Shown here: piece by piece, positions 5,151-47,689 of the stretch
Layout: every line of letters begins with the position of its first letter
Numbering within the stretch: position 1 is the first letter of the stretch
From: Candidatus Woesearchaeota archaeon
Lineage (GTDB): Archaea > Nanobdellota > Nanobdellia > Pacearchaeales > GW2011-AR1
DNA length: 64,000 bases
Direction of reading: 5' to 3'
Assembly (NCBI GenBank): GCA_964479755.1
Contig: CAYZNI010000001.1
Location: 10,171-74,170 of the forward strand
Made by a program: the position numbers and the translations under genes
The notes under the pieces: generated by a model
Told to the model about the DNA's origin: nothing
Seen by the model: only the letters and a program-made list of their open reading frames with translations
Databases searched by the model: none

Positions 5151-5221
5151 TTTAATTATTAGTAATATAGAGTTAAATAGATTTTGATGTTGCCGTTTTC
5201 GAAAAGTATATATATATATAT

Positions 5222-7324: not shown

Positions 7325-7746
7325 TTTATTTGCGTCAATAACGACCACTAAAATTCAGTTATTCGAAAACCCTGTTTATTTAGAGCTTGAAAAATTTACA
7401 ATGGACTTGATTTCTTTTTTGCATTAATATTGAGAAAAAATTAGCATGTAAAAATAATGATTCAGTTCGATTTATTGGCAGAATCTCTAAAAAAAGGTAT
7501 TCGAGGTATTCTATTTTTATGCAATGCCTAATTTTTTTTGTTTTAAATAAACTTTCAATTAAATAATGGCCCTTTTAATTTATCTGAGTTTGAGATTAAA
7601 ATATTTCGAAAACCAATACGAGCTAATTATCCAGGATTATGCTTGAATAAAAAAAGATAATCTGCTGGAAATTGCATTTAAAAGAGAGAATTATTGGAGA
7701 TATTAATCAAGCCGAAATTTGCATTCCCGGAATATTTTGCTGCAAA

Positions 7747-31226: not shown

Positions 31227-31334
31227 ATGCTAGTTGAAATGACTTTAGCGTTAATAGTTGGCATCATTTTAGGAAGTTTCAGCGGCAAACACGACACCAG
31301 TTTTCCAATAAAAACTCTCTTTTTCTAAAAAGCG
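31227..31334 (+). pseudogene. 35-codon fragment that mimics the N-terminus of the DUF112-like membrane-protein gene at 45648; putative att-associated displaced gene end.
   Basis: MLVEMTLALIVGIILGSFSG versus MIIELIIALLLGVTIGCFSG at 45648: 9 of 20 residues identical and the rest conservative. The fragment diverges and stops after 35 codons. Confidence 0.4.
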
Positions 31335-31376
31335 TAATCATTACGCTACAAATCATTTAAAATAGGAAAACTGAAA

Positions 31377-31862
31377 ATGTATATGGGAAGAGATAAAAAT
31401 AATCCGAGTATCATCTACATAAATTATCAGATAAGAAGTAATGGAAAAAAGATTAACATATTTGATAGGGTTAATCAGATAAAAACGGACATCAAAGTGC
31501 TTCTTCCTGAAATTGAGGATGATAAGTTGATTGGTATGTTCTCTCACATGAGAAGATATTACGAGGGGAAATTACATTATGGAAGAAGAACCAATCCAGA
31601 AAATTGGGATAAGAAACAAGATTTAACCGAAGCTGAAAGATTAATCTATGACTATCTTCTTAAAAATAAATTGAATCCTTCTACAACTTATAGGTGGATG
31701 CTGACCTGTAGAGTGCCTTCAGACATCAAAAGCAAGCTCATGGAAGGGAGATTATCATACAAGAAAGCTCTTTGGATAGCTTCAAACAGAAAGAGACAGA
31801 GAGAAAGCAATACGGGGCTTCTAATGATGGAAGAAATAAACAATATAGTAGCGAGCTTATAA
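31377..31862 (+). CDS. Hypothetical protein, possibly an N-terminal (core-binding) module of the adjacent integrase in another frame.
   Basis: 161-aa ORF. Its stop abuts the integrase start (taaaatg). Confidence 0.35.
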   Translation: MYMGRDKNNPSIIYINYQIRSNGKKINIFDRVNQIKTDIKVLLPEIEDDKLIGMFSHMRRYYEGKLHYGRRTNPENWDKKQDLTEAERLIYDYLLKNKLNPSTTYRWMLTCRVPSDIKSKLMEGRLSYKKALWIASNRKRQRESNTGLLMMEEINNIVASL

Positions 31863-31863
31863 A

Positions 31864-32751
31864 ATGGGAAATAAAAACAAACTGCCAGATATGCTAAGAA
31901 AAGAACAACTTGTAAAGCTGTTTGAATCTATAGACAGACCAAAATGTTCTATCGCTTGTTTTATTGCCTTGATGTGTGGATTAAGAGTTAATGAAGTTTG
32001 TAAACTTGAAATAACAAACATAGACTTAGAGAGAAGGATTCTCAAAATAAAGGATAGCAAAGACCCAAATAGAAAGAAGCATGGTGGATATGGAAAAGAC
32101 AGAATCGTGCCCATCCCAGAAATTGCAGTTTCTCCAATAAAAAAGTGGCTTGATATAATTCAAGGTGGAAAATGGTTTTTACCTTCTATGAAAAGCCCAG
32201 ACTTGCATTTAATGAAAAAAACACTGCACGAATGGTTTAGACAAGCAAGAAAGAGAGCAAATTTAGATGAAGTAGATTATGTTGTGAAATACAAAAAGAA
32301 AACATTACATAGAGAAAGCAGTCCAGTCTATAAAATAAGATTTCATCATTTCAGGCATTTCTATGCAACTTATGTTTATGAGAAAACCAGAGACCTCTAT
32401 GCCGTCGCTGATTTGCTTGGGCACAATCAAGTTACAACTACCCAAATTTATGCCAAGATTTCAGATAAAACCAAGAGGGAAACTATTGATTTTGCATTTA
32501 ATACGCCAATCAAAACAAGGATTTTCCAAGACAATCCTATCAATGCTCTCAACTACAAAATCCCAACTATCGCAAAGCAAAGAGAGAAATCTCCTATAGA
32601 AATCCTTGAAGAAAGATTCGCCAAAGGTGAGATTTCAGCAATAGACTTTCAAACAGCATTAAGATTGTTAAAAGTAAGAAAAGATTATCTTAGCGAAGAT
32701 AAAGACTCAGAAGAACCAAAGGAAAAAGAGATTGAAAACAGAGAAAATTGA
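31864..32751 (+). CDS. Tyrosine site-specific recombinase/integrase.
   Basis: Catalytic signature R...HxxR...H...Y: GLRVNEV, RFHHFRHFYATYV, LLGHNQVTTTQIYAKI. Confidence 0.8.
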   Translation: MGNKNKLPDMLRKEQLVKLFESIDRPKCSIACFIALMCGLRVNEVCKLEITNIDLERRILKIKDSKDPNRKKHGGYGKDRIVPIPEIAVSPIKKWLDIIQGGKWFLPSMKSPDLHLMKKTLHEWFRQARKRANLDEVDYVVKYKKKTLHRESSPVYKIRFHHFRHFYATYVYEKTRDLYAVADLLGHNQVTTTQIYAKISDKTKRETIDFAFNTPIKTRIFQDNPINALNYKIPTIAKQREKSPIEILEERFAKGEISAIDFQTALRLLKVRKDYLSEDKDSEEPKEKEIENREN

Positions 32752-32772
32752 ATTATTATTCAATTTACTGAA

Positions 32773-35700
32773 TTAAACCGCAGTAAAGACCACATTTCTG
32801 AAAACAGCATTTCCTGCGTCATCGGTAATTCTAATATTCAAATTATGATTTCCATCTCTGAAATAAATCTTCTTGTAACAGTTTCCGTTTTTCAGACTTG
32901 TGCACATTGAGTTCCATCTCGGTCTTGAGTCAGAATTGTCATAATACTCAACTTTATTGAAGTTTAATTCATTAATAGTCATATTGAAATAAGCATAGTT
33001 TCCGATTGTCCAATTAGTAAATTGAAGAACTTGAGGCGAAGTTGTATCAACCCTAATCCTTGTTGGTCTTGATTCGTCTTTATTTCCTGCAACATCTATA
33101 ATTGTGAATTGATATTCTACTTCTTTACCGTCAAATGAACTTATGTCCTGAGAGATAAATTTCTCAACATTTCTACCATTAGAACATTTGTTTGAGTTTA
33201 CAATAGTGCTCTGATTACTTCTAATTGTCAGATTCAAAACTACACAATTATCTTCGGTGTATTTAATGTAAAAGTCGCTCCCATTAGTATAGCCTCTACT
33301 TTGAGGTTTTGTTGTAGATATTTGAGGGTCTTTGCTGTCTATAAATAATTCGGTTTGATTAGTTACATTCTTTCCGCTTGGTAATATTCCCCTAAAGAAT
33401 AATACATGATTTCCATCACCTAATGTTTTCTTTTGTGCATACTTATTACAATTAGTGCATAATGAGGATTCTCTTCCCCCATTATCTGAATAAACCAATT
33501 TAACGAATTTATCTTGAGAGCTAAGATTAAACATAACACTTCTTTCATTGTATATTCCTGAATCGGGATTAATCAAGACTAAAGAAGGATTTACTACTGA
33601 GCAAGATTCTACTGCACGATATTCATAAACTGTCTTATTTGGAATCTCCCCGCAGTTATTAAAGTCTGATTGAACTAAGAACCTTGATTGATTCATAAAA
33701 TTATTTTGTAAGCAAGAAATATTCAACCAGTTGCTCCAAGAGGTATTCGCCATCTGGGGCTTACAGAAATCGCAAGTCTGATTTCTAAATTCCCAATAGG
33801 TTTTATTTAATCCATTATTCCAAAGGTCAGAAGACAAATTAGTGACTGTAAAACAGGTGCTATAATTAGAATCATACCCGGTTTTACTTCTATTTTGAAT
33901 GTAATAATCTCCAACTAAGCAAGAGGTTTGATTCTGCCATGTGCTCATAGTGGTGTTAACAATTTGAGGATTACAAAAATTGCAAGTTTCACTTGTTTGG
34001 TATTCAATAAAAGACTGATTTTGTATTAAACCACAATTATTAGAATCATATTGAATCCAATCCCGACTTTGATTAAGTTTATCGTTGATTAAGCAACTTA
34101 TATTTAACCAAGAAGATTTAGTAGTATTCTGCAAGAGCTGGTCACAAATAGCATTCTTTGTTTCAAGACTCACTAATGCTCCACTGCTCCAACAAATCTT
34201 AGTCCCCGAAGAGGTAGTTGTGCAACTTCCTTTGTTTAAATTGAAACCATTGTATACTATCTCCTTAAATTCATTTGTTTGTGAACAAGTAGGGACTATA
34301 TTTCCTGGGTCATTACAAACATCAGGGGTTTTTAGCTCAAGAGTTTTATTATCTAAATCTAAAATCCTGACATCATTTGAAGTTTGAGAAAATTGAGGGT
34401 CATACCTTATGCCTTCAGGTAAATCAGTAGGCAAGTTAATTGTATAGTTATATCTGATACACATTCCACCACAAGAAGAGGTCTTAATAGAAGAAGTAAA
34501 ATTTGTCTTGTTGATTGGTATGGTAGAATTTACAGGACTCCAACTTATTTCTTTCATAGTTGTTTGTGCTCCTTTAATTTCTATCTCAGAAGGATTTTTT
34601 TCTCCATTTATGTATATCTCATAATTTCCCTTAGGAAAAGTTAAACCATATTTCTGATTGTTATAATCTTGAGTGGGGTAATACATACTAAGATTATTAT
34701 CGCTAAAATAAAACCAATTATTTGTTTCAGAATTATGTCTTGAATCTTTGAATTTTGTAAGACCATAATAAATGTTGCTAACTTTATTTTTTAGTTTAAC
34801 TTCTCCAGCTGACTGGTTAGAATTAATTTTAAGGACAACACTGCCCCTACTAAAAACATTACTACTGGAATTTTGAGGGTCAATATAGAAATCTCCGCTA
34901 TCCAAATTAGATTTTATTACTTGAACACTATTTCCCCTAATAAAATCATCAATGATGTCTACTTCTTTGTGAACATCAACAGTGAAGAAACCTGTAAAAT
35001 CATTCCCTTTCTCATTTGCGTGGTTATAATCGTTTAAAATTACCAGTGGAATATTTTTATCAAGCAAACTTGCACTTGAAACCGCAACAAGCCCGTCATT
35101 ACCTGCTCCAGAATCTCCAGAATTAGATTCTTTAGTCTCATCAGGAACGCAAGGAATCCCTTGATTACCCGTTATTGCTAAGTAGCTTATTTGATTACTT
35201 AATGAATTTTTATTCAACAACCAAGTAAACTCACTTCCAACAGCGAGGTCAAGATATGCTTGAGCATATTCATCATCAGGAGTTATGCCCAACAGATTGG
35301 CAAGCCAGTTACAACCATAACTCGCTGGAGCAATGTCCATTAAAACTCTATTTGCTGAAAAAGAACCATGTAATGGTGAAGCAACAATAACATATTTTCT
35401 GATGTTATTATCGTATGGAATAGACGCTCCCCCAGAGCTCTTACCAAGACCTTCAATATATCCCAAAGTAACAAACCCCCCCATACTATGGGAGATAACA
35501 TCTAACTTAGAAACAGAATAATAACTAAGAACAATATTAATTTCATTCTTTAATAGTCCTGCCGTCATAAAATTGCTCGCATTTGCAGGGATATAATAAA
35601 GCTCCCAAACATCATAGTTATAATCTCCTAACTTTGAAGGGATATTATTCCAATAACCCCATGTAGAAGTGTCTCCAGTGTCTATTCCATCGCTTCCATG

Positions 35701-36603
35701 CAATCCATGAATCAGTAAGACGGGAGTTCTCTGAGAATTAAGTGAGTAATAACCCATGACTGCCGTTGGATATGTTGAATAATCTATTTCATAAGATTCT
35801 GGATATGAAGAGGCAGAAAAAGCTCTCATAGCCCTATTATTTGGTTGATACTCTTTAACATAACCTTCTACAAATCTTAGTTTTTCATCGGGCATTAATT
35901 GATATTCATTGCCGTATACTGAATAGAATAAATTTGGTTTAGAATCAACATTAGACCAGTATTCTACTGAAAATGTATAATTCCCCTTTTCTAAAAAAGA
36001 ATTGAAGGTATTGTTATATGAAATATTTGAGTCCATATTATCAAACATTGTCTTATTATTCATCAAAACTTTAGCCCTCCCAGTAATGTTCAAAAAGAAA
36101 GAGTAATTCGCATTGTCATCAATTACAATTTCACCAGTCCAAGAAACAAATCTGTCAGTAGAACTTAATATGAGTTCTTTTGGAACTTCAGGTGTCTTTA
36201 ATTCAGCATGCTTGGCACTTGTCTTTTCTGTTAAATAAATATTAATTAAACTATTTTTCTTAAAATCAGCATTTTTACTATCTATTTCCGATATTAAATT
36301 TGAATCCTTTTCAATCTCTGTTCTATAAATAACTCTCTTTGGAATGAGATTACATCCTTCAAAACAAAATAATTCAGTATTCAGGTCTATTGTTGAAGGT
36401 TGACTACTTCTAATATCCCTTACTATTTTTTCTCCAGTATTAAATTGATAAGATAAAACCAAATTCTCTCCAGACAATTTACTAAATGTTCCATTATTAT
36501 CTTTAACAAGATTCACAGTAGTATCAAAACTTGCACTTACAAAAGAAACATTCAAAATAACAATGAGTCCAAAAACCATAAGGAGGAGATTATAGAGCTT
36601 CAT
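32773..36603 (-). CDS. Giant secreted protein with an alpha/beta-hydrolase (lipase/esterase-like) module.
   Basis: 1276-aa ORF with a Sec signal peptide. GxSxG nucleophile elbow VISHSMGGFV. Many Cys and N-glycosylation sequons. Confidence 0.5.
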   Translation of the reverse strand: MKLYNLLLMVFGLIVILNVSFVSASFDTTVNLVKDNNGTFSKLSGENLVLSYQFNTGEKIVRDIRSSQPSTIDLNTELFCFEGCNLIPKRVIYRTEIEKDSNLISEIDSKNADFKKNSLINIYLTEKTSAKHAELKTPEVPKELILSSTDRFVSWTGEIVIDDNANYSFFLNITGRAKVLMNNKTMFDNMDSNISYNNTFNSFLEKGNYTFSVEYWSNVDSKPNLFYSVYGNEYQLMPDEKLRFVEGYVKEYQPNNRAMRAFSASSYPESYEIDYSTYPTAVMGYYSLNSQRTPVLLIHGLHGSDGIDTGDTSTWGYWNNIPSKLGDYNYDVWELYYIPANASNFMTAGLLKNEINIVLSYYSVSKLDVISHSMGGFVTLGYIEGLGKSSGGASIPYDNNIRKYVIVASPLHGSFSANRVLMDIAPASYGCNWLANLLGITPDDEYAQAYLDLAVGSEFTWLLNKNSLSNQISYLAITGNQGIPCVPDETKESNSGDSGAGNDGLVAVSSASLLDKNIPLVILNDYNHANEKGNDFTGFFTVDVHKEVDIIDDFIRGNSVQVIKSNLDSGDFYIDPQNSSSNVFSRGSVVLKINSNQSAGEVKLKNKVSNIYYGLTKFKDSRHNSETNNWFYFSDNNLSMYYPTQDYNNQKYGLTFPKGNYEIYINGEKNPSEIEIKGAQTTMKEISWSPVNSTIPINKTNFTSSIKTSSCGGMCIRYNYTINLPTDLPEGIRYDPQFSQTSNDVRILDLDNKTLELKTPDVCNDPGNIVPTCSQTNEFKEIVYNGFNLNKGSCTTTSSGTKICWSSGALVSLETKNAICDQLLQNTTKSSWLNISCLINDKLNQSRDWIQYDSNNCGLIQNQSFIEYQTSETCNFCNPQIVNTTMSTWQNQTSCLVGDYYIQNRSKTGYDSNYSTCFTVTNLSSDLWNNGLNKTYWEFRNQTCDFCKPQMANTSWSNWLNISCLQNNFMNQSRFLVQSDFNNCGEIPNKTVYEYRAVESCSVVNPSLVLINPDSGIYNERSVMFNLSSQDKFVKLVYSDNGGRESSLCTNCNKYAQKKTLGDGNHVLFFRGILPSGKNVTNQTELFIDSKDPQISTTKPQSRGYTNGSDFYIKYTEDNCVVLNLTIRSNQSTIVNSNKCSNGRNVEKFISQDISSFDGKEVEYQFTIIDVAGNKDESRPTRIRVDTTSPQVLQFTNWTIGNYAYFNMTINELNFNKVEYYDNSDSRPRWNSMCTSLKNGNCYKKIYFRDGNHNLNIRITDDAGNAVFRNVVFTAV

Positions 36604-36908
36604 TTTTGTTTCCTTGAAAAGAGTTTAGCAATAAAATAGACTAACAAAAAATAAATCAAAGAATTAAGCAAAATTGCTATAATAGAAAGTCCAATATTTT
36701 TATAGATTGCGTCCGTATGAACTACTAAGTAAAGTAAAAGAGCACTTGGAAAATTTATCAAAACAAACAAAATATTTGTTGTACATACTGAACCAAAAAA
36801 TCCTCCTGCAAATTGAACAATCCTGCAAGGCAAAATTAAGAATATAACGGATAAAATAATGAATAGAATTACAAAAATTAAAGATATTCTTGCACTTGTC
36901 TTTTCCAT
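36600..36908 (-). CDS. Small membrane protein.
   Basis: 102-aa ORF with three hydrophobic helices. It overlaps the upstream giant gene by 4 nt. Confidence 0.4.
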   Translation of the reverse strand: MEKTSARISLIFVILFIILSVIFLILPCRIVQFAGGFFGSVCTTNILFVLINFPSALLLYLVVHTDAIYKNIGLSIIAILLNSLIYFLLVYFIAKLFSRKQK

Positions 36909-36974
36909 ATAATTACCATATTATTGATAATTATAAAGCTATCTGCAAAAAAGATGTTCGCTTTAAGTAGTAAA

Positions 36975-37241
36975 TCAAAGTGTAGAAACTTTTGATAATA
37001 TTTTCTTTCCGTAAGGGGTTATAACATATAACTTACCCTTATTAGCATCGGGAGTTAAACATTCAACAAATTTCTTTGCTTCTAATTCTGCCAATGCTCT
37101 ACTGATATGTGCAATGTTAATGTTTATTTCTTTGCTTAATTTAGAAGGGGTTTGAGGAAAAACTAACTTCTCTAAAACCTTTTTCCTATATTCGCTTGAA
37201 ATTATAAAACTTACATCTTGCCAATTTATTTCCTTATCCAT
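36975..37241 (-). CDS. Winged-helix DNA-binding protein.
   Basis: 88-aa ORF with a helix-turn-helix and beta-wing pattern: INIAHISRALAELEAKKFVECL...GKLYVITPYG. Confidence 0.45.
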   Translation of the reverse strand: MDKEINWQDVSFIISSEYRKKVLEKLVFPQTPSKLSKEININIAHISRALAELEAKKFVECLTPDANKGKLYVITPYGKKILSKVSTL

Positions 37242-37316
37242 ACCTTAAAATGACGAAAAGCTTATATAGGGGTATTTACCATATTGTTACCATATAATTA
37301 AGACAGCTTTGACAAA

Positions 37317-38039
37317 ATGGCTAAGAAAACAGAAAATAATAAGGAAATCTCCCCTGTCAAAAAGAGTTCTAAAGGAATTTATATCTTAGTAGGGATAATC
37401 GCTGTAGTTGTAATAGTTTTGTTAATTGCTTTTCTAAATAGCAGTTCAATGACTGGCAATGTTATAAATACCAATTCCGAAGCTGGACAAAATCAAGAAG
37501 TAAAACAAACATGCAAGGATGTTCAAGTTCCATACGATTATCTTGAAGAATATCAAGAAACCGTTCCTTATACAGATACTGTTTGTGATGCTAAGGTCTT
37601 AGTATACAGCAGAGGCAGTTTTGATTTGGTTTCCTCTGTATGTAACCAACAGGTAGAAGAATGCCAAAAATATGTTCTTGGTTTTTGCACAAGCAAAATT
37701 ACTTATTGCACAGATAGAACCATAACTTGTTCTTTAGGTATTAACAACCTTGATGACGAAAGAGGAATTTGGCAGGTTAATTTCAATTTCTTTAAATCAG
37801 GCTCAAGTAATGTAGAAGCAACAGCTTCTCAGTCTCGTGGACTTGACCCGCACTCATCTGGAACTGCTATCGGTCAAGGAGAAATTACTTCAAAAGAGTT
37901 ATATGACACCCAATACACTTGTAGTTATGTCATTAGTAATGAACCTACAAAGCAAGTTTGTAGAGATGTTACAAAATACAAAGAAGTTACAAAAACAAGG
38001 ACAGTAACACGGTATAGAACTGAAAATAAGTGCGAATAA
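37317..38039 (+). CDS. Membrane-anchored cysteine-rich protein.
   Basis: 240-aa ORF with an N-terminal TM helix and multiple Cys residues in the ectodomain. Confidence 0.4.
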   Translation: MAKKTENNKEISPVKKSSKGIYILVGIIAVVVIVLLIAFLNSSSMTGNVINTNSEAGQNQEVKQTCKDVQVPYDYLEEYQETVPYTDTVCDAKVLVYSRGSFDLVSSVCNQQVEECQKYVLGFCTSKITYCTDRTITCSLGINNLDDERGIWQVNFNFFKSGSSNVEATASQSRGLDPHSSGTAIGQGEITSKELYDTQYTCSYVISNEPTKQVCRDVTKYKEVTKTRTVTRYRTENKCE

Positions 38040-38105
38040 ATTCTTAGCCCTATTAGGCTACATTTGAGCTACAAGCGTTAAAAATAAGTCTCCTCTTTTT
38101 AGTCT

Positions 38106-38582
38106 ATGAGAACTAAGGGAGCAAGAGATACAAAAAAGAGAAAGGCAAGAAAAGATAGAAAATATAAGTATAGATATAAAAGAGGAAAATTTCAACCTTA
38201 CTTTCCAAAGAGAAATAGAAGCGACCCTGTAAAGATATGGTGGTGGTCAATAGAACCAATGAGTAAAGATGCCTATAAAAGATTCCCACCACATCTAAGA
38301 GCGATTATTAGAAAAACCGTTTTTAAAAAATCTATTAGAGTAGATGTCTTGCCAATAAAGTTATCAAACAAGAGAGAGATTGAAGACCTTGCTCTTGACA
38401 CATTAGGAACAACAGGATATTTCTATTTGATGATGTTTTGTAAAAGAAAAAATCAATTTGGAGTTAGCCCTGTAAAAACTGCAAGTGTTATGATAACAGA
38501 CTCCCCAGAAGGACTAAAGGCAAAATTCATACAAAATTTTAGACTCTATCGTTACTGGTTTTGGGAGGAGAGAAGAAAATGA
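38106..38582 (+). CDS. Highly basic hypothetical protein.
   Basis: 158-aa ORF with a K/R-rich N-terminus (KKRKARKDRKYKYRYKRGK). Confidence 0.3.
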   Translation: MRTKGARDTKKRKARKDRKYKYRYKRGKFQPYFPKRNRSDPVKIWWWSIEPMSKDAYKRFPPHLRAIIRKTVFKKSIRVDVLPIKLSNKREIEDLALDTLGTTGYFYLMMFCKRKNQFGVSPVKTASVMITDSPEGLKAKFIQNFRLYRYWFWEERRK

Positions 38583-39295
38583 AATCTTGCATATATTGCC
38601 GTGTTTCTGTTGATGATGTGAAAAATCCAAGAGATTCAATAAAAACTCAAGAGAAGGTATGTAGAGAAAGAGCAAAAGAAAAAGGTGACGAAGTTATAGA
38701 AGTTTATCAAGACATCAATAAAAGCGGAGGCTCTCTTAACAGACCTCAATTAAGGAGATTAATTGAAGATGCAAGACAAGACAAATTTTCAGCAGTTTAT
38801 ATTATGAATTTTAGCAGATTAAGCAGAAAAATCAAAGACCAAGAAACTCTTATTGATGAAATGGAAAAATTAGGTATTAAATTTATTTCAGCAGACGGAA
38901 CAGAGGATAAAACCATAAGACAAATTACTGGAGTGATGAACGAATATCAAAGAGATTTCTTTAGAAAACAAACAGAAATTGAGCATCAAACAAGATTAAA
39001 AGAAAAGATTGCCTTGAACAGACCCCCAACAGGATATAAAATTGACAGCAAAGAAAAATATTTTATTATTGACAAAAAGAAAGCTGAGCTGATAAAAAGA
39101 ATTTTTGAACTAAGGCTTCAAGGAAAAGAAATAAAAGATATTGCTAAAGAAACAAAAATCTCTTTTCAAACAGTAAAAAATATTCTACAGAACAAAACTT
39201 ATATTGGGTTTAACAAATATAGAAATGAGTGGATTGAAGGAAAGCATCAAGCAATAATCACTAAGGAGGTTTTTGAAAAATGTCAAAGAATCTAA
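38579..39295 (+). CDS. Serine recombinase (resolvase/invertase family).
   Basis: N-terminal catalytic motif MKSCIYCRVSVDD. Also GGSLNRPQLRRLIEDA and NFSRLSRK. The ORF track begins at a TTG at 38561; the ATG at 38579 is preferred. Confidence 0.7.
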   Translation: MKSCIYCRVSVDDVKNPRDSIKTQEKVCRERAKEKGDEVIEVYQDINKSGGSLNRPQLRRLIEDARQDKFSAVYIMNFSRLSRKIKDQETLIDEMEKLGIKFISADGTEDKTIRQITGVMNEYQRDFFRKQTEIEHQTRLKEKIALNRPPTGYKIDSKEKYFIIDKKKAELIKRIFELRLQGKEIKDIAKETKISFQTVKNILQNKTYIGFNKYRNEWIEGKHQAIITKEVFEKCQRI

Positions 39296-39822
39296 TTTCT
39301 TCTCCCCCAAGCATTTATCAGCTATATCTTAGAAAGCTGGGAGCTTTTGGAAGTTCTATATTTGGAAATGATTTATACTTCTTAAAAGAATTTGTTGATT
39401 TGGGAATCCAAGACTTCGGAGAGGAAAGAGTTATAGAAATGTTGAGAAATGACAATAGTCCAAATAGCAAAAGATGTAAAGAAATCGCTGAAAATTGGGA
39501 GGATGTTAAAAGAGATTTTAGGATATTTGATATTCGTTTAACAAGAGCAAAAGGATTTTATGATAAAATAGAGAAAAAAGATTTTTCAAAGATAAATGAT
39601 AAAGATGTAGAAGAGTTTATGGGATATTCAAAAAGGATTTCTTTTATAAAAGAAGATATTTACACCTTAGCAATTTTTCTGATAAGAAATAGCCCATTAC
39701 AAAAACAAACAATTCCGAGCGAAGCATGGAAAGTCTTAGAACACTCTGGACTTAAAAAATTAGAATCGGGGAATAAAACACCTCAGCCACTAAACACTGA
39801 ATCTTCAGGAGGAGAAAATTGA
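39280..39822 (+). CDS. Hypothetical protein carried by the element.
   Basis: 180-aa ORF that overlaps its neighbours. Confidence 0.3.
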   Translation: MSKNLISSPPSIYQLYLRKLGAFGSSIFGNDLYFLKEFVDLGIQDFGEERVIEMLRNDNSPNSKRCKEIAENWEDVKRDFRIFDIRLTRAKGFYDKIEKKDFSKINDKDVEEFMGYSKRISFIKEDIYTLAIFLIRNSPLQKQTIPSEAWKVLEHSGLKKLESGNKTPQPLNTESSGGEN

Positions 39823-40190
39823 GAGTCATTCAACAACTGCTCATTAAGATTATGAGTCTTCACGAAGAATTTGATTTTCGTAATTATGAGCTAAGGTCAA
39901 TCTGGCATTTTTACAAATGTTATAATCTTGCTATAGTGATACTTGGAAAAGAAGACCCTAACATTCATTGTAAAAACCATTTATGGAAAAGAATTGTGGA
40001 GTCTCAAATTGAAGGCGAGATTAATGTTAAAGCATACACAAGACTGAAGAATTTTATGAGAAATGATTTTGCAGTAATAAGTGAGGCAATTAAAGAAATT
40101 TCAAGAGAAAATGAAGAGCTTGGATATGATGAAGGAGATTTATGGACTCCTAATGCTCTGGCAGTTCAGTTTATGGAGGTAGAAGACTAA
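39819..40190 (+). CDS. Hypothetical protein carried by the element.
   Basis: 123-aa ORF with overlapping start and stop junctions. Confidence 0.3.
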   Translation: MRVIQQLLIKIMSLHEEFDFRNYELRSIWHFYKCYNLAIVILGKEDPNIHCKNHLWKRIVESQIEGEINVKAYTRLKNFMRNDFAVISEAIKEISRENEELGYDEGDLWTPNALAVQFMEVED

Positions 40191-40191
40191 C

Positions 40192-41793
40192 ATGGATTTA
40201 AGATACCATAACGGTTGTTTAAAAGTATTTCTTACCGATAAAACTAAAAGGATTCCTCCAGAGCAATGGGGGATTTATGCAACTACAGGATATGGAAAAT
40301 CTCTTTGTGAAGAGGGAATAGTTGAGGCTTATTTTAATGCAGGATTTATAGTTATTTACTTAGGTGATGGAATGAAGGGCGAGGAAGAAGGTTGTTACGC
40401 AATGTTTGAACCTGAAGAAAGGTATCATTTAGCCTTACTAAAAAAAGAGGGCAAGCGTCCAAGAAAAGTAGATGTTAAACTATATCATCCATTCACATTT
40501 AATATCCCAAATAACTCAATTCCGAATTATAACTTTTTTACAATACCAATTAAGAGTTTAGGTAGAAGAGATTTTTCTATGTTAGCAGAAACTCAAGCAG
40601 ACTCAGACACAATTAGAATATTATTACAAGCATCACAGAATCTTTCAAAAGAGGGAGGAGTCTATCAATTGCTCCACGACATACAAACATTAATCAAAGG
40701 AAAAAGAAAAGATGATTCAGTTTCACCATCTCAGAATAATTTCTATCTCTCTGTAAGCTCTGGAACAGCCAAGAGTATGCAAGATATTAGTAATTTATTT
40801 CAAGCATTCAAAAAAGATTATTTTTTAGTTAAAGAGAATTGTGAATTTACTCTTGATATGAAAAAGATTCTTTCAGACAATAAGAGCATTCATTTCTTCT
40901 CAACAAAATATCTAAGAGACCCGAAGATAAAAGAGTTTGTCCTTTTGGTAGTCTTGAATAAAATCTTAGAAAATAAAGATTACGCAAAACATCCAGTTTG
41001 TATAGTAATTCCTGAAATTAGAAGATTATGTCCAGACAAAGCTATCGGCTATCAAAAATTTCTTAGCGAAGCTATTAAAGAAGCCTTATCCACAATGCGT
41101 TCACAGGGTCAAGGAGGATTTGCTTCTATACTCTCTTCTCAAAGTTGGAATGACACAGAGCAAGGAGTCAGAGATTCTCACAGCATTACATTATTAGGAA
41201 AATTGAACATAAATGACATAGATAAAATAAGTAAAGTCTTAGGATATAATAGAGAAAGAAGATTAGAATTAGCAAATCCTCCCGCATCTAATTCTTGGCT
41301 TCAGATTGGTAGAGAAGGTTTAGACTGGTGGCACTATTTTGCACCAAGCTGGTGTCATGCAGAACCTGAATATAAATTTGAAGAAATGTTCAAAAAATAC
41401 TATCCTGAAAAAATGAATAAATATTCAGAAACAATAAACTCCATGAAATCAATACTTAATGATGAAGAAGCTAAGTTTAAAGAGAAAGCAAAAAGAGAAG
41501 AAGAGGAAGAAAGGAAAAGGCATGAGCAAAAGAAAAAAGAACGAGAGCAGAGAATAGGCAACAATTCAAGTCAAGATGTAAAGCAAAGGGAGAAGGAGTT
41601 CAAAGAGCAGGGAAAGATAAAGGATATGGAAAGAGCTCAAAGAATGAGGGAAGAAGGGTTAACCCTAATAGATATTGCTAATAAGCTCGGAACTTCAAAA
41701 GACACTGTTAGAAGATGGCTACTGAAGTATGAGCAGATGAAGAAAGAACAAGAGCCAGAATTATCAAACCCCTCAACAGAAGATAAGGTATGA
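40192..41793 (+). CDS. P-loop NTPase with a K/E-rich coiled coil and a C-terminal HTH; HerA/FtsK/VirB4-like DNA-translocation or transfer ATPase (inference).
   Basis: Walker A GIYATTGYGKSL. C-terminal HTH LTLIDIANKLGTSKDTVRRWL. Confidence 0.45.
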   Translation: MDLRYHNGCLKVFLTDKTKRIPPEQWGIYATTGYGKSLCEEGIVEAYFNAGFIVIYLGDGMKGEEEGCYAMFEPEERYHLALLKKEGKRPRKVDVKLYHPFTFNIPNNSIPNYNFFTIPIKSLGRRDFSMLAETQADSDTIRILLQASQNLSKEGGVYQLLHDIQTLIKGKRKDDSVSPSQNNFYLSVSSGTAKSMQDISNLFQAFKKDYFLVKENCEFTLDMKKILSDNKSIHFFSTKYLRDPKIKEFVLLVVLNKILENKDYAKHPVCIVIPEIRRLCPDKAIGYQKFLSEAIKEALSTMRSQGQGGFASILSSQSWNDTEQGVRDSHSITLLGKLNINDIDKISKVLGYNRERRLELANPPASNSWLQIGREGLDWWHYFAPSWCHAEPEYKFEEMFKKYYPEKMNKYSETINSMKSILNDEEAKFKEKAKREEEEERKRHEQKKKEREQRIGNNSSQDVKQREKEFKEQGKIKDMERAQRMREEGLTLIDIANKLGTSKDTVRRWLLKYEQMKKEQEPELSNPSTEDKV

Positions 41794-42297
41794 TAAATAA
41801 ACTCCTCACTTTTACATTCGGCAAAGCCATAGGGGGTCAAATGTTTAGAGAACTATTTTTGATAACTGTAAATATGGGGTCACTTATTTCACAGCTACTT
41901 TTCCTATTATAATAGTTTATAGTCGTCATAATCCCAAAAGAAGGAGCAGTCGTTAATCACTTTAAAATAAAAAATATTTTTCTCACTTCTCATCTACCAG
42001 TAGGTGCACCTGCAATTTTCAGATGATTAAGAATATAAGCAATGTTATTGACTTAAAATAAAAAATAAAATTCTCAATGACTTTTTATGATATGATAATT
42101 ATGTAATGCAGAGGGCTGAACTTTTTTGTGCAATTCAAACAATCTTCTTTATTTCTATTCCTTTCAAATAATTAGCAAGTTCTATTCCTGCCATTATAAC
42201 CCTATCCTCATAGTTAGTGAGAGCCTTAATCTTCTCAAAAGTTAATCCATCCCAATAATAGAATAAAGCAGACTGGAGGACATCAATAAAATATTCT

Positions 42298-43683
42298 TTA
42301 TCCATTTTTAAGAACCTCTGCTATTTTAGATTTAGTGAAGTCAATCATAACTTCGGGCATTATTTCTTTTAGGCTCTTTTTTGTTTTAATGTCTTCACTA
42401 CCTTTAGTATCTCTTTCTTTTATTGGTGTTAAAGGTATTAAAGGTTCTAAAGCTGGATAACCTTCTAAAGATACTAAACTTTTCTTGCATAATTCTTCAA
42501 ATGTTGGAATTTCTAATCGTTCATTAGGATTATATGCTTTTGACAAGGAATAAACCTCAATATCCCTATTCCAACTATCTGTATCAGTTTCTGTTTGTAA
42601 AATTCCATACTTAACTAATATTCCGAGATTTGTTTGAAGAGCAGGCAAAGAAACAAAATTCATCTTTGAAGAATGCAGTTGAGAAACTGACCCTAAAAGA
42701 TTTGGTTCTTTTTCAAATATTTCTAAAATCTTTTTTTGATTGATTGTAAGAGGAATCATATATTTATTTGAACATAACTTCAAAAAACATTCTCTCGCAA
42801 TATCATAATCCTGCCCATTTGCCAATACATAACCCTCCTTATCCCTTTTTCTCTGATATTGATGAAAACCTGCACTTGCAGAAATAAAGTCAAGGTATCT
42901 GGGATAATGCGTTCTCATAATAATATTCTTAGTAGGAAAATGGGGGTCTATAGAATCTGCAAAGGGAATCTTTACCTTAACTCTCTTCAAAAATCTCATT
43001 GAGTTAGTATATTTATTGTCATACTCTGGCACGATTCCTCTTTTCTTAAATTCAGAATGCCTTTTCATTATTGCCTTTGTCTGGTCTTCGGAGCTATCTA
43101 AATTTAAAATAACAAACCTTCGGGATAATTCAAGATTTGGCGTTGAGCTTGCAGTAGTTGTTATCATAACAGGTTTTCCATTTATTTCTATATCTATTGC
43201 TCTCTGTTTAATTGTAATTGTTGCAGAGCTTCCTTTAGAGCACATTACTTTAAAGACATCCGAGTTCAACACAGACTCAGAAATATCTTCAGGATAGAAA
43301 ACCTTACCATCCCAAGTCCAGTCGGGCTCATAAGTAGAATTGTGCCAGTAAGTAAAAACCGTAGGGCTAATTCTTGTTTTATGGACATAAACTTCTTTTG
43401 GCAAAATATCTAAAACTGCTCCCGCAACATAATCTTTTCCAATACCTGCATCATCATTTATCAAAAGATTATATGAAGCAATTTGAGCATTTTCTATAAG
43501 TCGTCCATTTGAACACAAGAAGATTACTTTCCTTGTTTCAACCTCTCCAACTATTTTTTTATCAAACTCGTTTTCAGTTATCTCCTTAAACAGATTAGGA
43601 TTAGTTAAAACTTCCATTACTTCGGCTGGAGGCTCATCAGCCTTTTTCAATATAGCATCAACATTATTCTTTTCAATTTTCAT
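42298..43683 (-). CDS. Replication protein C-terminal module: D5/SF3-like helicase with an atypical Walker A.
   Basis: NDDAGIGKDYVAGAVLDILPK resembles the D5 P-loop G.G.nGKStf..ll..lG, with S replaced by D. It is translationally coupled to the upstream prim-pol ORF. Confidence 0.4.
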   Translation of the reverse strand: MKIEKNNVDAILKKADEPPAEVMEVLTNPNLFKEITENEFDKKIVGEVETRKVIFLCSNGRLIENAQIASYNLLINDDAGIGKDYVAGAVLDILPKEVYVHKTRISPTVFTYWHNSTYEPDWTWDGKVFYPEDISESVLNSDVFKVMCSKGSSATITIKQRAIDIEINGKPVMITTTASSTPNLELSRRFVILNLDSSEDQTKAIMKRHSEFKKRGIVPEYDNKYTNSMRFLKRVKVKIPFADSIDPHFPTKNIIMRTHYPRYLDFISASAGFHQYQRKRDKEGYVLANGQDYDIARECFLKLCSNKYMIPLTINQKKILEIFEKEPNLLGSVSQLHSSKMNFVSLPALQTNLGILVKYGILQTETDTDSWNRDIEVYSLSKAYNPNERLEIPTFEELCKKSLVSLEGYPALEPLIPLTPIKERDTKGSEDIKTKKSLKEIMPEVMIDFTKSKIAEVLKNG

Positions 43684-44146
43684 ATTGAATCAACTCCTTC
43701 ACCTTTCCACTTTTCCAGTGAGGTGCAAACTCAAGAGCAATCATGTGTCTATTAGAAGCCAGTTGAGTATCTGCAAGAAAATGCTTTATCACCTTTAGTT
43801 TCTCTTCTTGTGAAAGATTCTTATTATAGAAAGTATGGACATGGTAGCCTCTTGAACCCGTGCTGAAAACATAGAAAATAATCTTTAATTCTTTAAGCTC
43901 TTTAACAGTTAAAGGTAATCTTTCTTTGTCTTCAAAATCAAGGACAATTTCAAAAGGAAGTATCTGCCTTTGATTGACCTTTGATAAAAACCATTTATTC
44001 CATCCATTTTCAGAATCAAAACAAACCTCAGAATATTTCTTTCTTTTGCTCTTCTTCCCATCTTTTTCTAAGATTTGAAGTTCAAAATCACAATTCTGCC
44101 CTCCTAAATCATAAAAGAGATAAGAAAGCCAATTCTCTTTATCCAT
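43673..44146 (-). CDS. Primase-polymerase (archaeo-eukaryotic primase fold, prim-pol) domain protein.
   Basis: Motif I LDFED, motif II STGSRGYHVH, and a motif III-like stretch DTQLASNRHMIALEFAPHWKSGK. Confidence 0.5.
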   Translation of the reverse strand: MDKENWLSYLFYDLGGQNCDFELQILEKDGKKSKRKKYSEVCFDSENGWNKWFLSKVNQRQILPFEIVLDFEDKERLPLTVKELKELKIIFYVFSTGSRGYHVHTFYNKNLSQEEKLKVIKHFLADTQLASNRHMIALEFAPHWKSGKVKELIQYEN

Positions 44147-44310
44147 TATTTAATCCTCCTAAAATCTCAATCCTTAAAATCTTCAATAGAAGGATTGCTT
44201 CAATATGTGAATTTATCTTCAGAAAAATGTGAGTGGAAGTATATCCATCTAAAACTCCTGTTTTCTTTGAGGGATATTGCCCACCATCATCATAAATAAC
44301 CTTGAGGGTT

Positions 44311-44568
44311 TTATTTATGTGTTTTTTCCATTCTTGTTCTTGTTCCATTTTTTCCATTTGATTCATTTCCAATTATTTCCAAAATTTTATTGAGTTTTAT
44401 TTCCACAGTAGGAGCTTCAAAAATTCGGGAGCGGATATATTCACTCAGGGTCTTTCCTGCTTGTTCTGCAAGAAAATCAAGTCTCTGTCTTTGAGTCTTT
44501 GTGAGCCTACAACGAACTTCCCTTAGCTCTTTCTCTTGAGGAAATTGCATTTGATTATCTTCCATCAT
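44311..44568 (-). CDS. Ribbon-helix-helix (CopG/Arc-like) DNA-binding protein.
   Basis: VRCRLTKTQRQRLDFLAEQAGKTLSEYIRSRI has the RHH beta-alpha-alpha pattern. Confidence 0.5.
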   Translation of the reverse strand: MMEDNQMQFPQEKELREVRCRLTKTQRQRLDFLAEQAGKTLSEYIRSRIFEAPTVEIKLNKILEIIGNESNGKNGTRTRMEKTHK

Positions 44569-44731
44569 TTTTCACCTCTAATCTTTTTGAGTTTGAAATG
44601 ATTTCTTTTGCCTTTTCCTGACAAGCCAGTCTAACAAAGTTGGCAATACTTCTTTGCACCTTTTCAGACGCCTCTTTAACTAAGTTAAATTCCTCTTCAT
44701 TAAAGTCGGCAGATAATTTTTTGTAGCTCAT
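44555..44731 (-). CDS. Second small RHH-like protein of 58 aa; not in the ORF track.
   Basis: MSYKKLSADFNEEEFNLVKEASEKVQRSIANFVRLACQEKAKEI. Its stop overlaps the start of the downstream RHH gene. Confidence 0.3.
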   Translation of the reverse strand: MSYKKLSADFNEEEFNLVKEASEKVQRSIANFVRLACQEKAKEIISNSKRLEVKNDGR

Positions 44732-44865
44732 TTTCTCTTATTTTAAGAGATAAGGCAAGTATTTAAATCTTTCCTTTTATCTTATTTTAAGAGAGAAGAT
44801 ACGCCTTTCAGATATTATCTCTTATTTTAAGATAAATTTAAATACTCTTTTCTCTTAAATTCTAA

Positions 44866-45432
44866 ATGGTAAGAGAAAAGGATTATAATTTTATTATGGG
44901 GAACAAAACCCGAAGAGAAATATTAAACTTGATTGAAAACAAATCTCTAAACGCAAGTCAAATAAAAGAAACTCTTAAACTAAGTAGTTACGGTCTTCTA
45001 TACCAGCATCTAAAAGTCTTGGAAGAAGTAGGAATTATAACAAGGCAACAAATAAAAGATGAGGCAGGAAAGAAAAAACAAGGGAGAGAGACAAAAATAT
45101 CAATCAACACCAAAGGACTAAATAGATTCATGAAAACTCAGGGAATCCTGCCTGATGTAGAAATAGATGAAAAAATCTTGAGGGATATTCTAAAATTTTT
45201 ATCTACGAAAGAAGAACCTGTCTCCTTTTATGAGATTGTAGATAGTATCCATCCTCAAAATAAGAAAACAAAATATGAAGATTTTATAGGAGAAGTCCAA
45301 GCCCTAATTATGGATTTTCCAGAACTTTTTATGTATAAGATAAGCAAAGAAGGAATAGAAAATTTGAATAAAAATTCAAAATTAAAACATAAAAACCCAC
45401 AAAAAACAACCCAAAGTATCAAAACATCATAA
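44866..45432 (+). CDS. Winged-helix (ArsR-like) transcriptional regulator.
   Basis: NKTRREILNLIENKSLNASQIKETLKLSSYGLLYQHLKVLEEVGII. Confidence 0.45.
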   Translation: MVREKDYNFIMGNKTRREILNLIENKSLNASQIKETLKLSSYGLLYQHLKVLEEVGIITRQQIKDEAGKKKQGRETKISINTKGLNRFMKTQGILPDVEIDEKILRDILKFLSTKEEPVSFYEIVDSIHPQNKKTKYEDFIGEVQALIMDFPELFMYKISKEGIENLNKNSKLKHKNPQKTTQSIKTS

Positions 45433-45647
45433 AAAACATGTAAAATAGTTCGGGAATGCAAATAAAATTAAGAGCTTTCCGACGGGGGATGTGGATTATT
45501 GGAATAAAAAGGAAAATAACCTATTGGGCAACCAAAATTAGCAATGAAAAATCAAAAAATCAGCAAAGTTTATATAGAAGCACCACTTCATAGTTTTAGA
45601 AAAATAGAGTTAGTTTATCGTCGGAAAAACTGACATCGGAGCATACG

Positions 45648-46862
45648 ATGATTATTGAATTAATCATTGCTTTATTGCTCGGGGTCACCATAGGGTGTTT
45701 TAGCGGCGTTTTTCCAGGAATACATATTAACCTTGTTGCGGCTGGGCTTTTAGCTTTGATAGGCAGGGGATATTTAGAGGGAATTGCGCCGATAGTGCTT
45801 GTGGCCTTTATTGTGGCGATGGCGATAACGCACACATTTATTGATTTTATTCCTTCGATATTTCTGGGTGCGCCTGAAGAAGATTCTTTTCTTGCTGTTT
45901 TGCCAGGACATGAACTTTTGAAAAAAGGCAAGGGTTTTGAGGCAGTTGTGGCGACGCTTTATGGCTGCGTTGCGGCGCTGCCATTTGTGCTATTATTTAG
46001 TTTTGTTTTTGTGATTTTTTTGCCAGTTGCTTATGAGTACTCGAGGATGGTTTTGCCGTTTATTTTGATATTTGTCTCACTTTTTCTAATATTCAGGGAG
46101 GAAAGATTTCATGTTGCGTTGCTTGTGTTTATTTCTGCCGGAGTTTTGGGTCTATTGACATTTAATTTACCTGTAAAAGAGCCGCTGATGCCTCTATTGA
46201 CTGGCTTGTTTGGAATTTCATCATTGTTAGTGAGCATGAAAGACAAAGTTAAAATTCCAGAACAAAGAGTCATAAGTTTTTGGAAAATTAGGCCCGACAG
46301 AGGGTTTTTGAAAAGTTTCTTGGCAGGAGGGCTTGTTGCACCGTTCTTTTCATTTCTTCCGGCGATTGGAAGCGGACAGGCGGCGGTTGTGGTGAGCGAG
46401 ATTTCAGGGAAGAGCGAGAAAAATGAGAAGAGCTTTTTGTTTTTGGTTGGAATGATAAATGTAATGGTGATGTCGCTGTCGTTTGTCACTCTGTTTTCGA
46501 TTTCAAAAGGCAGGACCGGAGTTGCTGTTGCTGTAGGCAAGATATTGAAGGAGTTTACTTTGAGCGATTTGGTATTGGTTTTATTATTTGTTTTTTTATC
46601 CGCAGTTAGCGCATTTTTTGCCGGAATAATGATGGGGAAGTTTTTTGCAAATAAAATTTCTAAGCTGGATTATAGGAAAGTTTCTGTTGTCGTAATCGGG
46701 GTCTTATTTGTTGTTAACCTGATATTGAGCAATTTTGTCGGGCTAATTCTGCTTTTGACAGCTTCTGCATTGGGCGTGTTTTGCATTCTTTCGGGGGCGA
46801 GAAGGATTAATTTAATGGGGTGTTTGTTGATTCCGACGATTGTTTATTATTTGAGCGCGTGA
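45648..46862 (+). CDS. Polytopic membrane protein, DUF112/TctA-like.
   Basis: 404-aa ORF with about 10 TM helices. The N-terminus MIIELIIALLLGVTIGCFSGVFPGIH resembles TctA-family N-termini. The element-border fragment mimics its first 20 codons. Confidence 0.4.
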   Translation: MIIELIIALLLGVTIGCFSGVFPGIHINLVAAGLLALIGRGYLEGIAPIVLVAFIVAMAITHTFIDFIPSIFLGAPEEDSFLAVLPGHELLKKGKGFEAVVATLYGCVAALPFVLLFSFVFVIFLPVAYEYSRMVLPFILIFVSLFLIFREERFHVALLVFISAGVLGLLTFNLPVKEPLMPLLTGLFGISSLLVSMKDKVKIPEQRVISFWKIRPDRGFLKSFLAGGLVAPFFSFLPAIGSGQAAVVVSEISGKSEKNEKSFLFLVGMINVMVMSLSFVTLFSISKGRTGVAVAVGKILKEFTLSDLVLVLLFVFLSAVSAFFAGIMMGKFFANKISKLDYRKVSVVVIGVLFVVNLILSNFVGLILLLTASALGVFCILSGARRINLMGCLLIPTIVYYLSA

Positions 46863-47551: not shown

Positions 47552-47689
47552 ATGGTGAAAAAATACCTGCTTCTGATTGAGAATGAGAAACTTTGGGAGA
47601 AATTCAAAGAGAGCCTGAAGAAAGACATTAACAGCGAGATTATGGAGCTTATTGAGAAAAAAGTCGGAAAGGAGAAGAAAAATGAGTGA
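47552..47689 (+). CDS. Possible 45-aa leader ORF of the giant-protein operon.
   Basis: MVKKYLLLIENEKLWEKFKESLKKDINSEIMELIEKKVGKEKKNE. It overlaps the start of the next gene and is preceded by the TATA-like box. Confidence 0.2.
   Translation: MVKKYLLLIENEKLWEKFKESLKKDINSEIMELIEKKVGKEKKNE

Follow-up and report, generated by a model that had tools for sequence, protein, structure and literature searches.

Large, mostly extracytoplasmic proteins that join a hydrolytic enzyme to multiple adhesion domains were described in the Nanohaloarchaeota as SPEARE proteins (3,000-8,500 amino acids, aa), whose extracellular parts are variable and for which a role in host attachment or penetration was proposed (Hamm et al., 2019; PMC6642349). 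The protein analysed here, 1276 aa in length and carrying a lipase-type domain, is encoded next to a small membrane protein on an integrated element of ~14.7 kb, within a stretch of 64,000 nucleotides (nt) of contig CAYZNI010000001.1 (“the window”, to which all coordinates refer unless another locus is named) from a Candidatus Woesearchaeota archaeon (Pacearchaeales). Pacearchaeota and Woesearchaeota are abundant, uncultivated archaea with small genomes, and the substrate of such an enzyme would indicate which envelope or material these cells attack.

Among bacterial proteins, two further points of reference exist. PlaB, a phospholipase A of Legionella pneumophila, is a cell-associated, lipid-acting protein in which an N-terminal alpha/beta-hydrolase is followed by a beta-sandwich; its elbow motif is THSTG, and it is a tetrameric virulence factor without PA14 or immunoglobulin (Ig) modules. 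The Tle1-4 proteins are lipases of the alpha/beta-hydrolase class with a GxSxG motif. The reading preferred here, to which we assign a probability of roughly 55%, is that the large gene of the window encodes an exported, adhesin-like surface protein headed by a lipase, which resides on a shared element and whose N-terminal part is swapped as a unit with the adjacent small gene.

The lipase-type protein and its relatives

A sequence-only reading of this DNA had proposed a giant, lipase-like protein with a signal peptide, and the corresponding open reading frame (ORF) was confirmed (32773..36603, minus strand, ATG start), as was a hydrophobic segment at its N-terminus. The label “giant” is relative, since relatives with the same domain reach 1500-4200 aa. 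The enzymatic part occupies residues ~280-565 (34909..35766, minus strand), which are assigned to the alpha/beta-hydrolases, lipase class 2-like, by Pfam, by profile searches of the PDB, by an AlphaFold2 model and by Foldseek; no other hydrolase domain of the lipase kind is present in the window. Pfam Lipase_2 (PF01674) matches residues 293-419 with 21.5 bits in the whole protein and 24.0 bits in the isolated domain, a small margin over the gathering cutoff of 20.3 bits. The same family matches 11 of 13 domains of family members (best E 2.3e-10), with LCAT, DUF915, DUF7379, PGAP1 and Palm_thioest as weaker relatives. Within the large protein itself PGAP1, DUF7379 and DUF900 are found below threshold. 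Of the two folds that had been anticipated, lipase class 2 is the best match, whereas PGAP1 (PF07819) reaches 15.8-19.8 bits against a cutoff of 24.3, and a PGAP1-like assignment was rejected.

Comparison with proteins of known structure leads to the same class. A single-sequence phmmer search of the PDB retrieves lipases of the LipA type (6nkc, E 6e-5; Bacillus subtilis LipA, 1i6w), and in the LipA alignments (6nkc, 3qmm, 3qzu) PVLLIHG is placed over PVVMVHG and SHSMGG over AHSMGG. A family profile of the domain (276 residues; 13 sequences, i.e., the query and 12 homologues from a word-indexed search) improves the best PDB match, again of the LipA type, to E 4e-11 and adds lipases of Pseudomonas, Burkholderia and Proteus, the depolymerase PhaZ7 and PlaB; its alignment to LipA covers profile positions 7-115 only. 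In the AlphaFold2 model of residues 1-700 (13-row alignment; mean predicted local distance difference test, pLDDT, 75.8; predicted template modelling score 0.70), strands and helices alternate over residues 280-565 in the manner of an alpha/beta core, and a helical insertion of ~65 residues (~408-472, with helices at 415-465) lies between core strands and may be a lid. Foldseek returned 458 PDB matches at E<=1e-3, the best 50 of which are nearly all alpha/beta hydrolases: Legionella PlaB (6zth, E 5.5e-12) is followed by the P. aeruginosa lipase 1ex9 (5e-9) and then by BlEst2 and the Proteus, Burkholderia and CALB lipases. Secreted Streptomyces lipases are also matched.

The candidate catalytic residues fit this fold. 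The motif HSMGG (residues 372-376), previously read as a nucleophile elbow, places Ser373 (codon 35485..35487, minus strand) between strand 367-372 and helix 374-383 of the model, and this serine aligns with that of LipA. The block LLIHGLHGS (296-304), read as resembling an oxyanion hole, contains an invariant HG and is the part aligned with LipA as described above. Asp503 (codon 35095..35097, minus strand), in NDGLV (502-506), and His528 (codon 35020..35022, minus strand), in YNHAN (526-530), complete a Ser-Asp-His triad in the order nucleophile-acid-histidine of the alpha/beta-hydrolase superfamily. His299, Gly300, Ser373, Asp503 and His528 are invariant in all 13 family members and, among 160 domain matches, in every aligned row (Ser in 155/155, Asp in 150/150, His in 147/147). 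Since triad and HG block are invariant across relatives, the motifs are not chance. The two features on which the hydrolase call had been staked beforehand, an alpha/beta core and a serine at the elbow, are both present in the model. Conservation and predicted fold together support a catalytically competent hydrolase of the bacterial lipase class 2 / family I type.

It has to be considered whether the hydrolase fold could instead serve as a structural or binding pseudo-enzyme in an adhesin associated with the S-layer. Degenerate enzyme folds are frequent in surface proteins, and the Pfam score is marginal. However, the three triad residues and the HG block show no variation in any aligned relative, even at ~25% identity, and they are also kept in an allele on another contig (L091, see below) whose N-terminal part is ~40% identical. 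A non-catalytic scaffold is therefore extremely improbable, and this reading was rejected on the grounds of triad invariance.

The hydrolase is embedded in a long extracellular-type scaffold. The predicted order from N- to C-terminus is a signal peptide, a beta-sandwich, PA14, the lidded alpha/beta hydrolase, a second beta-sandwich, Cys-rich repeats and three adhesin-type Ig domains. Residues 1-24 (36532..36603, minus strand) probably constitute a signal peptide or an N-terminal anchor: residues 6-24, followed by VSA|SF, are the sole hydrophobic segment of the protein, the model has a helix at 2-18, and a C-terminal anchor is absent. The N-terminal sandwich (residues 25-123; 36235..36531, minus strand) is all-beta in the AlphaFold2 model and has no Pfam family, even at E 10. 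The following PA14-like, lectin-type domain (residues ~145-250; 35854..36171, minus strand) is suggested by several signals below threshold: PF07691 scores 17-22 bits, under its gathering cutoff of 24; the PDB sequence of a PA14 protein, 6qdi, is matched with E 0.044; phage PA14 proteins are among the matches in a fold search of BFVD, which are otherwise generic hydrolases; and precomputed PF07691 records exist for the relatives P0001, P0003 (weak) and P0007 and, as a strong match, for the L091 allele.

Downstream of the hydrolase, residues 572-690 (34534..34890, minus strand) form a second sandwich, all-beta in the model with pLDDT 80-90 and without a Pfam match. The description of the scaffold as rich in Cys and Asn proved accurate: Asn accounts for 11.4% and Ser for 10.7% of residues, N-x-S/T sequons number ~40, and 24 of the 28 Cys fall within residues 700-1250. 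The Cys-rich region proper, defined by Cys positions (residues 700-1005; 33589..34506, minus strand; pLDDT <50), holds three W..W..C...R...D.N.C repeats at residues ~820-1001, which were missed by self-BLAST; no Pfam family was found for this region, and Pfam gave no backing to a thrombospondin-type-1-like identity of the repeats. The C-terminus (residues 1009-1276; 32776..33579, minus strand) consists of three tandem Ig-like domains of the Big_13 type, modelled with pLDDT >90, with 29.9 bits for Pfam Big_13 and with Foldseek matches to the giant adhesin SiiE (2e-11) and to GhpA and RTX adhesins. NCBIfam and PHROGs contain no family for the large protein or for the small ORF beside it.

A motif resembling the Cys repeats, C..NW.C..W..C...R.C.D.N.C, was also observed in the C-terminal part of a second surface protein of the window, a right-handed beta-helix protein (Beta_helix/NosD; 1268 aa; 27072-30878, plus strand) with an N-terminal signal and a C-terminal transmembrane (TM) anchor. 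It is encoded directly left of the element boundary, in a flank that is missing from the L091 genome, so that this flank is variable, too.

The hydrolase family is less rare than the word-indexed search had implied. A word-indexed search with the profile gave just three further relatives, whereas an exhaustive hidden Markov model (HMM) search of 1.84 billion representatives yielded 73 clusters with E<=1e-30, 487 with E<=1e-10 and 5082 with E<=1e-3. The best 150 matches listed are nearly all proteins of 800-4200 aa. In a pattern-based, non-exhaustive scan of one genome per GTDB species, matches over the full length of the domain came from DPANN archaea only, namely from Pacearchaeota (L010, 89% aa identity), Woesearchaeota (L011-L014) and Nanoarchaeota (L015-L017), while matches in Streptomyces, Bryobacteraceae and others are partial, mostly of the N-terminal half, at ~23-33% identity. 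The neighbouring tyrosyl-tRNA synthetase (TyrRS) is 70-72% identical to its best named matches in Ca. Pacearchaeota/Nanoarchaeota. The relative P0011 joins Peptidase_S8 to the same lipase domain. The closest orthologue is found in L010, a Ca. Pacearchaeota metagenome-assembled genome (LacPavin; 1771-6924, one frame of 1717 codons), where a beta-helix module is inserted in the stalk. Genes for trypsin-like serine peptidases adjoin the lipase-type large gene in L002 (6580-7671) and L010 (61-1002), loci that are otherwise unrelated. One metagenomic contig, L005, carries two paralogous pairs of a small ORF and a large DUF7379/Lipase_2 gene (4346-7611, minus strand, 170 aa + 928 aa; 257-3999, plus strand, 142 aa + 1113 aa), and these small ORFs are not homologous to the small membrane protein of the window.

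Relatives of this kind raise the question whether a partner cell is involved at all. The protein could be a nutrient-scavenging exo-esterase or depolymerase, either on the cell surface or released, that acts on polymers or detritus of the environment (for instance polyhydroxyalkanoate, polyesters like cutin, acetylated glycans or free lipids), with the PA14 and Ig domains as substrate-binding or spacer modules. The family profile also matches the extracellular polyhydroxybutyrate (PHB) depolymerase PhaZ7, secreted Streptomyces lipases match as well, PA14 domains occur in glycosidases, and the secreted peptidases adjoining the gene in L002 and L010 suggest an exo-enzyme neighbourhood. The strongest matches, however, are true lipases and phospholipases, and an adhesin-type stalk, an N-terminal part that is exchanged and a place on a mobile element (see below) are more typical of proteins for interaction or specificity. 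Scavenging without a partner is a possibility to be kept in mind, though a rather improbable one.

The shared element and its N-terminal cassette

The large gene lies in a low-GC island (31227..45947; GC ~0.32 inside, 0.35-0.42 outside), which was delimited by blastn against two contigs, L091 (a second, divergent Pacearchaeota contig of 296 kb) and L093 (a JGI contig that matches the same window segments as L091). Across this interval the window is 86-89% identical to L091/L093 at the nt level. Outside it, the TyrRS gene is the sole flanking gene that aligns, at ~66% nt, next to a 161-nt patch at 20.6 kb with 70%, and the TctA protein (45648-46862) is 46% identical overall. This difference in identity between inside and outside indicates that the element is horizontally shared between divergent genomes. 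It occupies the same locus in the window and in L091/L093, beside the genes for a GTPase and TyrRS. The block of high identity was seen to end ~300 nt inside TctA, the first ~100 codons of which are in an 87%-identity block shared with L093, and the position of this junction, near 45947, suggests that the element was integrated into the 5' end of the gene or recombined there.

Genes for mobility are readily recognised. A tyrosine integrase of 295 aa (31864..32751, plus strand; Pfam Phage_integrase, E 2.3e-25) faces the large gene in convergent orientation, 21 bp away from the stop codon of the latter, and a serine recombinase (38561..39295, plus strand) matches Pfam Resolvase (3.5e-25) and Recombinase (8.8e-13); several helix-turn-helix (HTH) proteins and ORFans are also encoded. 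Proteins that cluster at 90% identity or more with the integrase and with a winged-helix (wHTH) protein are encoded in L091; P0285 (296 aa), from L091, belongs to the same 90%-identity cluster as the integrase of the window. The gene order in L091/L093 reads 161 aa, integrase, giant protein of 1284 aa, small protein of 98 aa, wHTH, 240 aa, 158 aa, resolvase, 180 aa, 112 aa, 533 aa, ..., 461 aa, 157 aa and ArsR. A related element in L100 (5787-7162, 9689-10138) has the pair of 161-aa protein and integrase (62-75% aa) and the 157-aa gene, and lacks any lipase-type large gene. The large gene is therefore accessory cargo, and this comparison of gene content shows that the element backbone circulates with different cargo. 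That homologues of the large gene might occur on mobile elements elsewhere, as the sequence-only reading had raised, was borne out in part: the element recurs in a second genome, and integrase genes neighbour the homologue in two of seven distinct foreign contexts, i.e., in L001, where the homologue is beside an integrase and an MCM helicase, and in L002, where the integrase is 4.4 kb away, whereas no integrase was seen in the other contexts.

The presence of an integrase is also compatible with a provirus, in which the large protein would act in receptor binding and entry with a membrane-active lipase, and the small membrane protein would be holin-like. The latter is indeed holin-like in size, with three TM helices and a basic C-terminus; phage PA14 proteins are among the Foldseek matches; and a 461-aa protein of the element has a 67% homologue on an IMG/VR contig. 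Of the proteins scanned against IMG/VR, this backbone protein was the only one to match (the 533-aa protein has no relative there). Its homologue in L091, however, carries the Pfam domain MTBMA_p00010_2nd, a name which we take to go back to a locus tag of plasmid style. Neither a capsid, portal or terminase nor any other PHROG family was detected in the element, and a search of 2.9 M IMG/VR contigs found no relatives of the hydrolase domain. The cassette is moreover present in L009, whose genes mostly lack Pfam matches, and in L010, with peptidase and ABC-transporter neighbours, and no integrase or viral gene was seen at either locus. A virion or entry protein is thus very unlikely, and the element is regarded as an integrated plasmid-like element.

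Three 27-nt direct repeats, spaced by 44 and 40 nt, were observed inside the element at 44728-44838. The palindrome CTCTTATTTTAAGAG is part of each, and an ArsR-type HTH gene (44866-45432) follows shortly downstream; the repeats could be iterons or operators. Beyond the element and downstream of tRNA-Val, two adjacent ORFs of 642 aa (47652-49580) and 2242 aa (49570-56298), both on the plus strand, have no Pfam match at E<=1e-4 and lie in a region with a GC of 0.42-0.45.

One part of the element is not conserved with L091/L093. This segment (34654..36899, minus strand) comprises the small ORF minus its first three codons and residues 1-650 of the large protein, and it does not align with either contig save for a 221-nt patch at 69%. 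Protein identity to the L091 allele is 22-60% over residues 1-650, with the lowest values in the N-terminal sandwich and PA14 and with 36-60% in the hydrolase, whereas it is 80-98% over residues 700-1276; the L091 allele nevertheless retains HSMGN, NDGF and the histidine. The converse pattern is seen with L010, a different locus with trypsin-like peptidase and MacB/FtsX neighbours: the cassette segment of the window is 77% (nt) and 75% (aa) identical to L010, and the tail only 60%. Because the segment diverges from L091/L093 and yet is 77% identical in nt to an unrelated locus, the exchange of this cassette by recombination is the parsimonious reading.

The small gene of the cassette (36600..36908, minus strand) encodes a membrane protein of 102 aa with three hydrophobic helices. 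It had been placed downstream of the large gene; the three-helix protein itself was confirmed, whereas the minus-strand orientation of the two genes puts it upstream, its stop codon and the start codon of the large gene overlapping in ATGA. Homologous small ORFs that run into the start of the large gene are present in L001, L003, L009, L010 and L091, which gives six loci including the window. The family has in common a conserved LPC[KRN] motif, followed after 10-14 residues by a second Cys, and a basic tail. Across the six loci the identity of the small protein tracks that of the N-terminal part (Pearson 0.85, Spearman 0.56), in a comparison whose pairs are non-independent and which is dominated by the pair of window and L010.

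Such a partnership might reflect a polymorphic pair resembling effector and immunity protein, in which the large protein would be a contact-dependent lipase or phospholipase effector and the small membrane protein would protect the membrane of the producer. The unit of exchange comprises the small ORF (from its fourth codon) and the enzyme-bearing N-terminal part, with the rest conserved; the two genes remain paired in six loci and diverge in a correlated manner; the hydrolase belongs to the GxSxG type, as in Tle1-4; and homologues are found in defence-like neighbourhoods with restriction-modification, HEPN or MazE genes. Against this, the variable part is N-terminal and includes binding domains, and the hydrolase is the least diverged of the segment. 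Almost none of the surface of the small protein lies outside the membrane, where it could bind an enzyme of 280 aa, immunity would be superfluous for a producer with ether lipids, and linkage alone can account for the co-exchange. An effector-immunity-like function is accordingly considered unlikely.

Proposed role

In the preferred reading of a lipase-headed, adhesin-like surface protein, the large protein would be made together with the three-helix membrane protein from a two-gene operon. This operon is probably controlled by the adjacent winged-helix regulator (88 aa; 36975..37241, minus strand; HVO_A0261_N/HTH_45-like by Pfam, 94% aa identical in L093), the gene for which adjoins the small and large pair in three unrelated loci, the window, L009 and L010. 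A tandem TT[TA]CCATAT pair with 11-nt spacing (36902..36921), placed after a TATA-like box and before the start of the small ORF, is a candidate operator. At the wHTH gene, the TATA-like box is closely preceded by a second tandem TTACCATAT pair of equal spacing (37276..37295). Within the 64 kb, the exact 9-mer TTACCATAT is found at only three places, all of them in the two tandem pairs, which makes these pairs candidates for the operator of the 88-aa protein, through which regulation of the operon would be exerted.

As the sequence-only reading had suggested, the protein may act in membrane or host interaction. After export, the Cys-rich region and the three Ig-like domains would form a stalk, and the PA14 and beta-sandwich modules might attach to a glycan on the surface of a partner cell or particle. 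Carboxyl-ester bonds at the target, in acyl-glycerols, phospholipids or other acyl esters, could then be cleaved by the hydrolase, which may serve to scavenge lipids or fatty acids or to weaken the envelope locally. The small membrane protein may dock, assist or protect. The cassette is the largest cargo of an integrase/recombinase element that has moved between divergent Pacearchaeota genomes; the small gene and the N-terminal part are swapped as one recombination unit, while stalk, regulator and backbone are conserved, and this exchange would change target specificity. Two natural alleles with a common tail and different N-terminal parts offer a ready comparison of specificity.

Several observations weigh against this proposal. 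Concerning the enzyme, the Lipase_2 score is barely over its cutoff, the PDB matches include the PHB depolymerase PhaZ7 and generic esterases, and the geometry of the triad and the lid were judged solely from the secondary-structure string of the model. In the L010 orthologue the reading frame is broken once, by an in-frame TAA at codon 601 within A-rich sequence, which is either a sign of a pseudogene or an assembly error. Concerning mobility, an integrase is found within 5 kb in just two of the seven foreign contexts (none seen in L003, L005-7, L009 and L010), and att repeats were not found among direct repeats across 30-48 kb, direct repeats of at least 11 nt at the junctions, or tRNA-Val fragments. 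Since att sites were not detected and the element occupies one and the same locus in the two genomes, the pattern could be explained by a variable island that underwent homologous recombination instead of insertion by the integrase. The co-variation of the small gene and the N-terminal part could be due to linkage alone. Finally, archaeal membranes are ether-linked, and a lipase is without an obvious substrate if the partner is an archaeon; a role in interaction thus implies targets with ester lipids, or esters other than lipids.

A more far-reaching possibility is that the small gene and the PA14-lipase part constitute the specificity cassette of a contact-dependent, membrane-attacking system of DPANN archaea, in which mobile elements would shuffle alternative N-terminal parts among Pacearchaeota, each with a cognate small partner for immunity or docking. 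We consider this improbable. If it were true, ester lipids in the target cells would point to bacterial rather than archaeal hosts or prey, and the system would be an archaeal analogue of polymorphic lipase effector/immunity systems.

Comparison with known systems

Fold and chemistry of the domain are ordinary. With the lipases of family I.4 (LipA/EstA; 1i6w, 6nkc) and of families I.1/I.2 (1ex9, 1ys1, 1cvl) it shares the alpha/beta-hydrolase fold, the x-H-S-M-G-G elbow, the HG oxyanion block and the order Ser-Asp-His, and with families I.1/I.2 also the N-D-G-L-V context of the Asp; the helical insertion sits where the lid of the I.1/I.2 enzymes lies. Families I.1/I.2 further have a Ca2+ site and a disulfide, and a Cys431-Cys485 disulfide is possible in the present domain. 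Identity of the domain to bacterial lipases is ~20-30%, and only the N-terminal half aligns by sequence. The A-H-S-M-G pentapeptide and the HG motif of family I.4 are present, with Ser instead of Ala or Gly as the first residue of the elbow. However, family I.4 comprises minimal, lid-less, single-domain enzymes of ~180 aa, unlike the domain of ~285 aa with its insertion, and the gene for the Lif foldase of families I.1/I.2 has no counterpart here, the partner being a 102-aa protein with three TM helices and without a Pfam or NCBIfam family. Moreover, bacterial lipases are free enzymes of 19-33 kDa, whereas the domain here is embedded in an archaeal surface protein of 1276 aa. PlaB (6zth) is the best structural match, with 521 aligned columns, a TM-score of 0.51 normalised to the target, a root-mean-square deviation of 10.2 Å and 13% identity, in an alignment that exceeds the hydrolase domain of ~285 residues in length; its profile match is weak (E 0.038).

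With regard to the exchange of parts, the Tle/Tli and CdiA-CT/CdiI systems likewise swap an enzyme-bearing part together with an adjacent small gene. This is a functional analogy only: in the present case it is the N-terminal part that varies, the small gene precedes the large one and the small protein is an integral membrane protein. Archaea are not known to have a type VI secretion system (T6SS) or contact-dependent inhibition (CDI) machinery.

A search of the literature for DPANN lipases or surface proteins found nothing specific, and the DPANN-restricted architecture, the partnership with a small gene and the element-borne exchange of the N-terminal part appear to be undescribed in the literature searched, while the fusion of a secreted alpha/beta-hydrolase to adhesion modules is a familiar theme. 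The present locus adds a conserved and probably active lipase-type domain on adhesin-like proteins that is moved and recombined by a mobile element. The SPEARE proteins differ in several respects: none of their serine-protease, laminin-G or restriction-endonuclease domains was found by Pfam in the protein described here, and no defining domain is common to both; this protein has neither a C-terminal TM anchor nor a cytoplasmic part and is 1276 aa long; and it comes from another phylum, where its gene is cargo of a mobile element. As giant extracytoplasmic DPANN proteins that combine an enzyme with adhesion domains, the SPEARE proteins are nevertheless its closest conceptual precedent.

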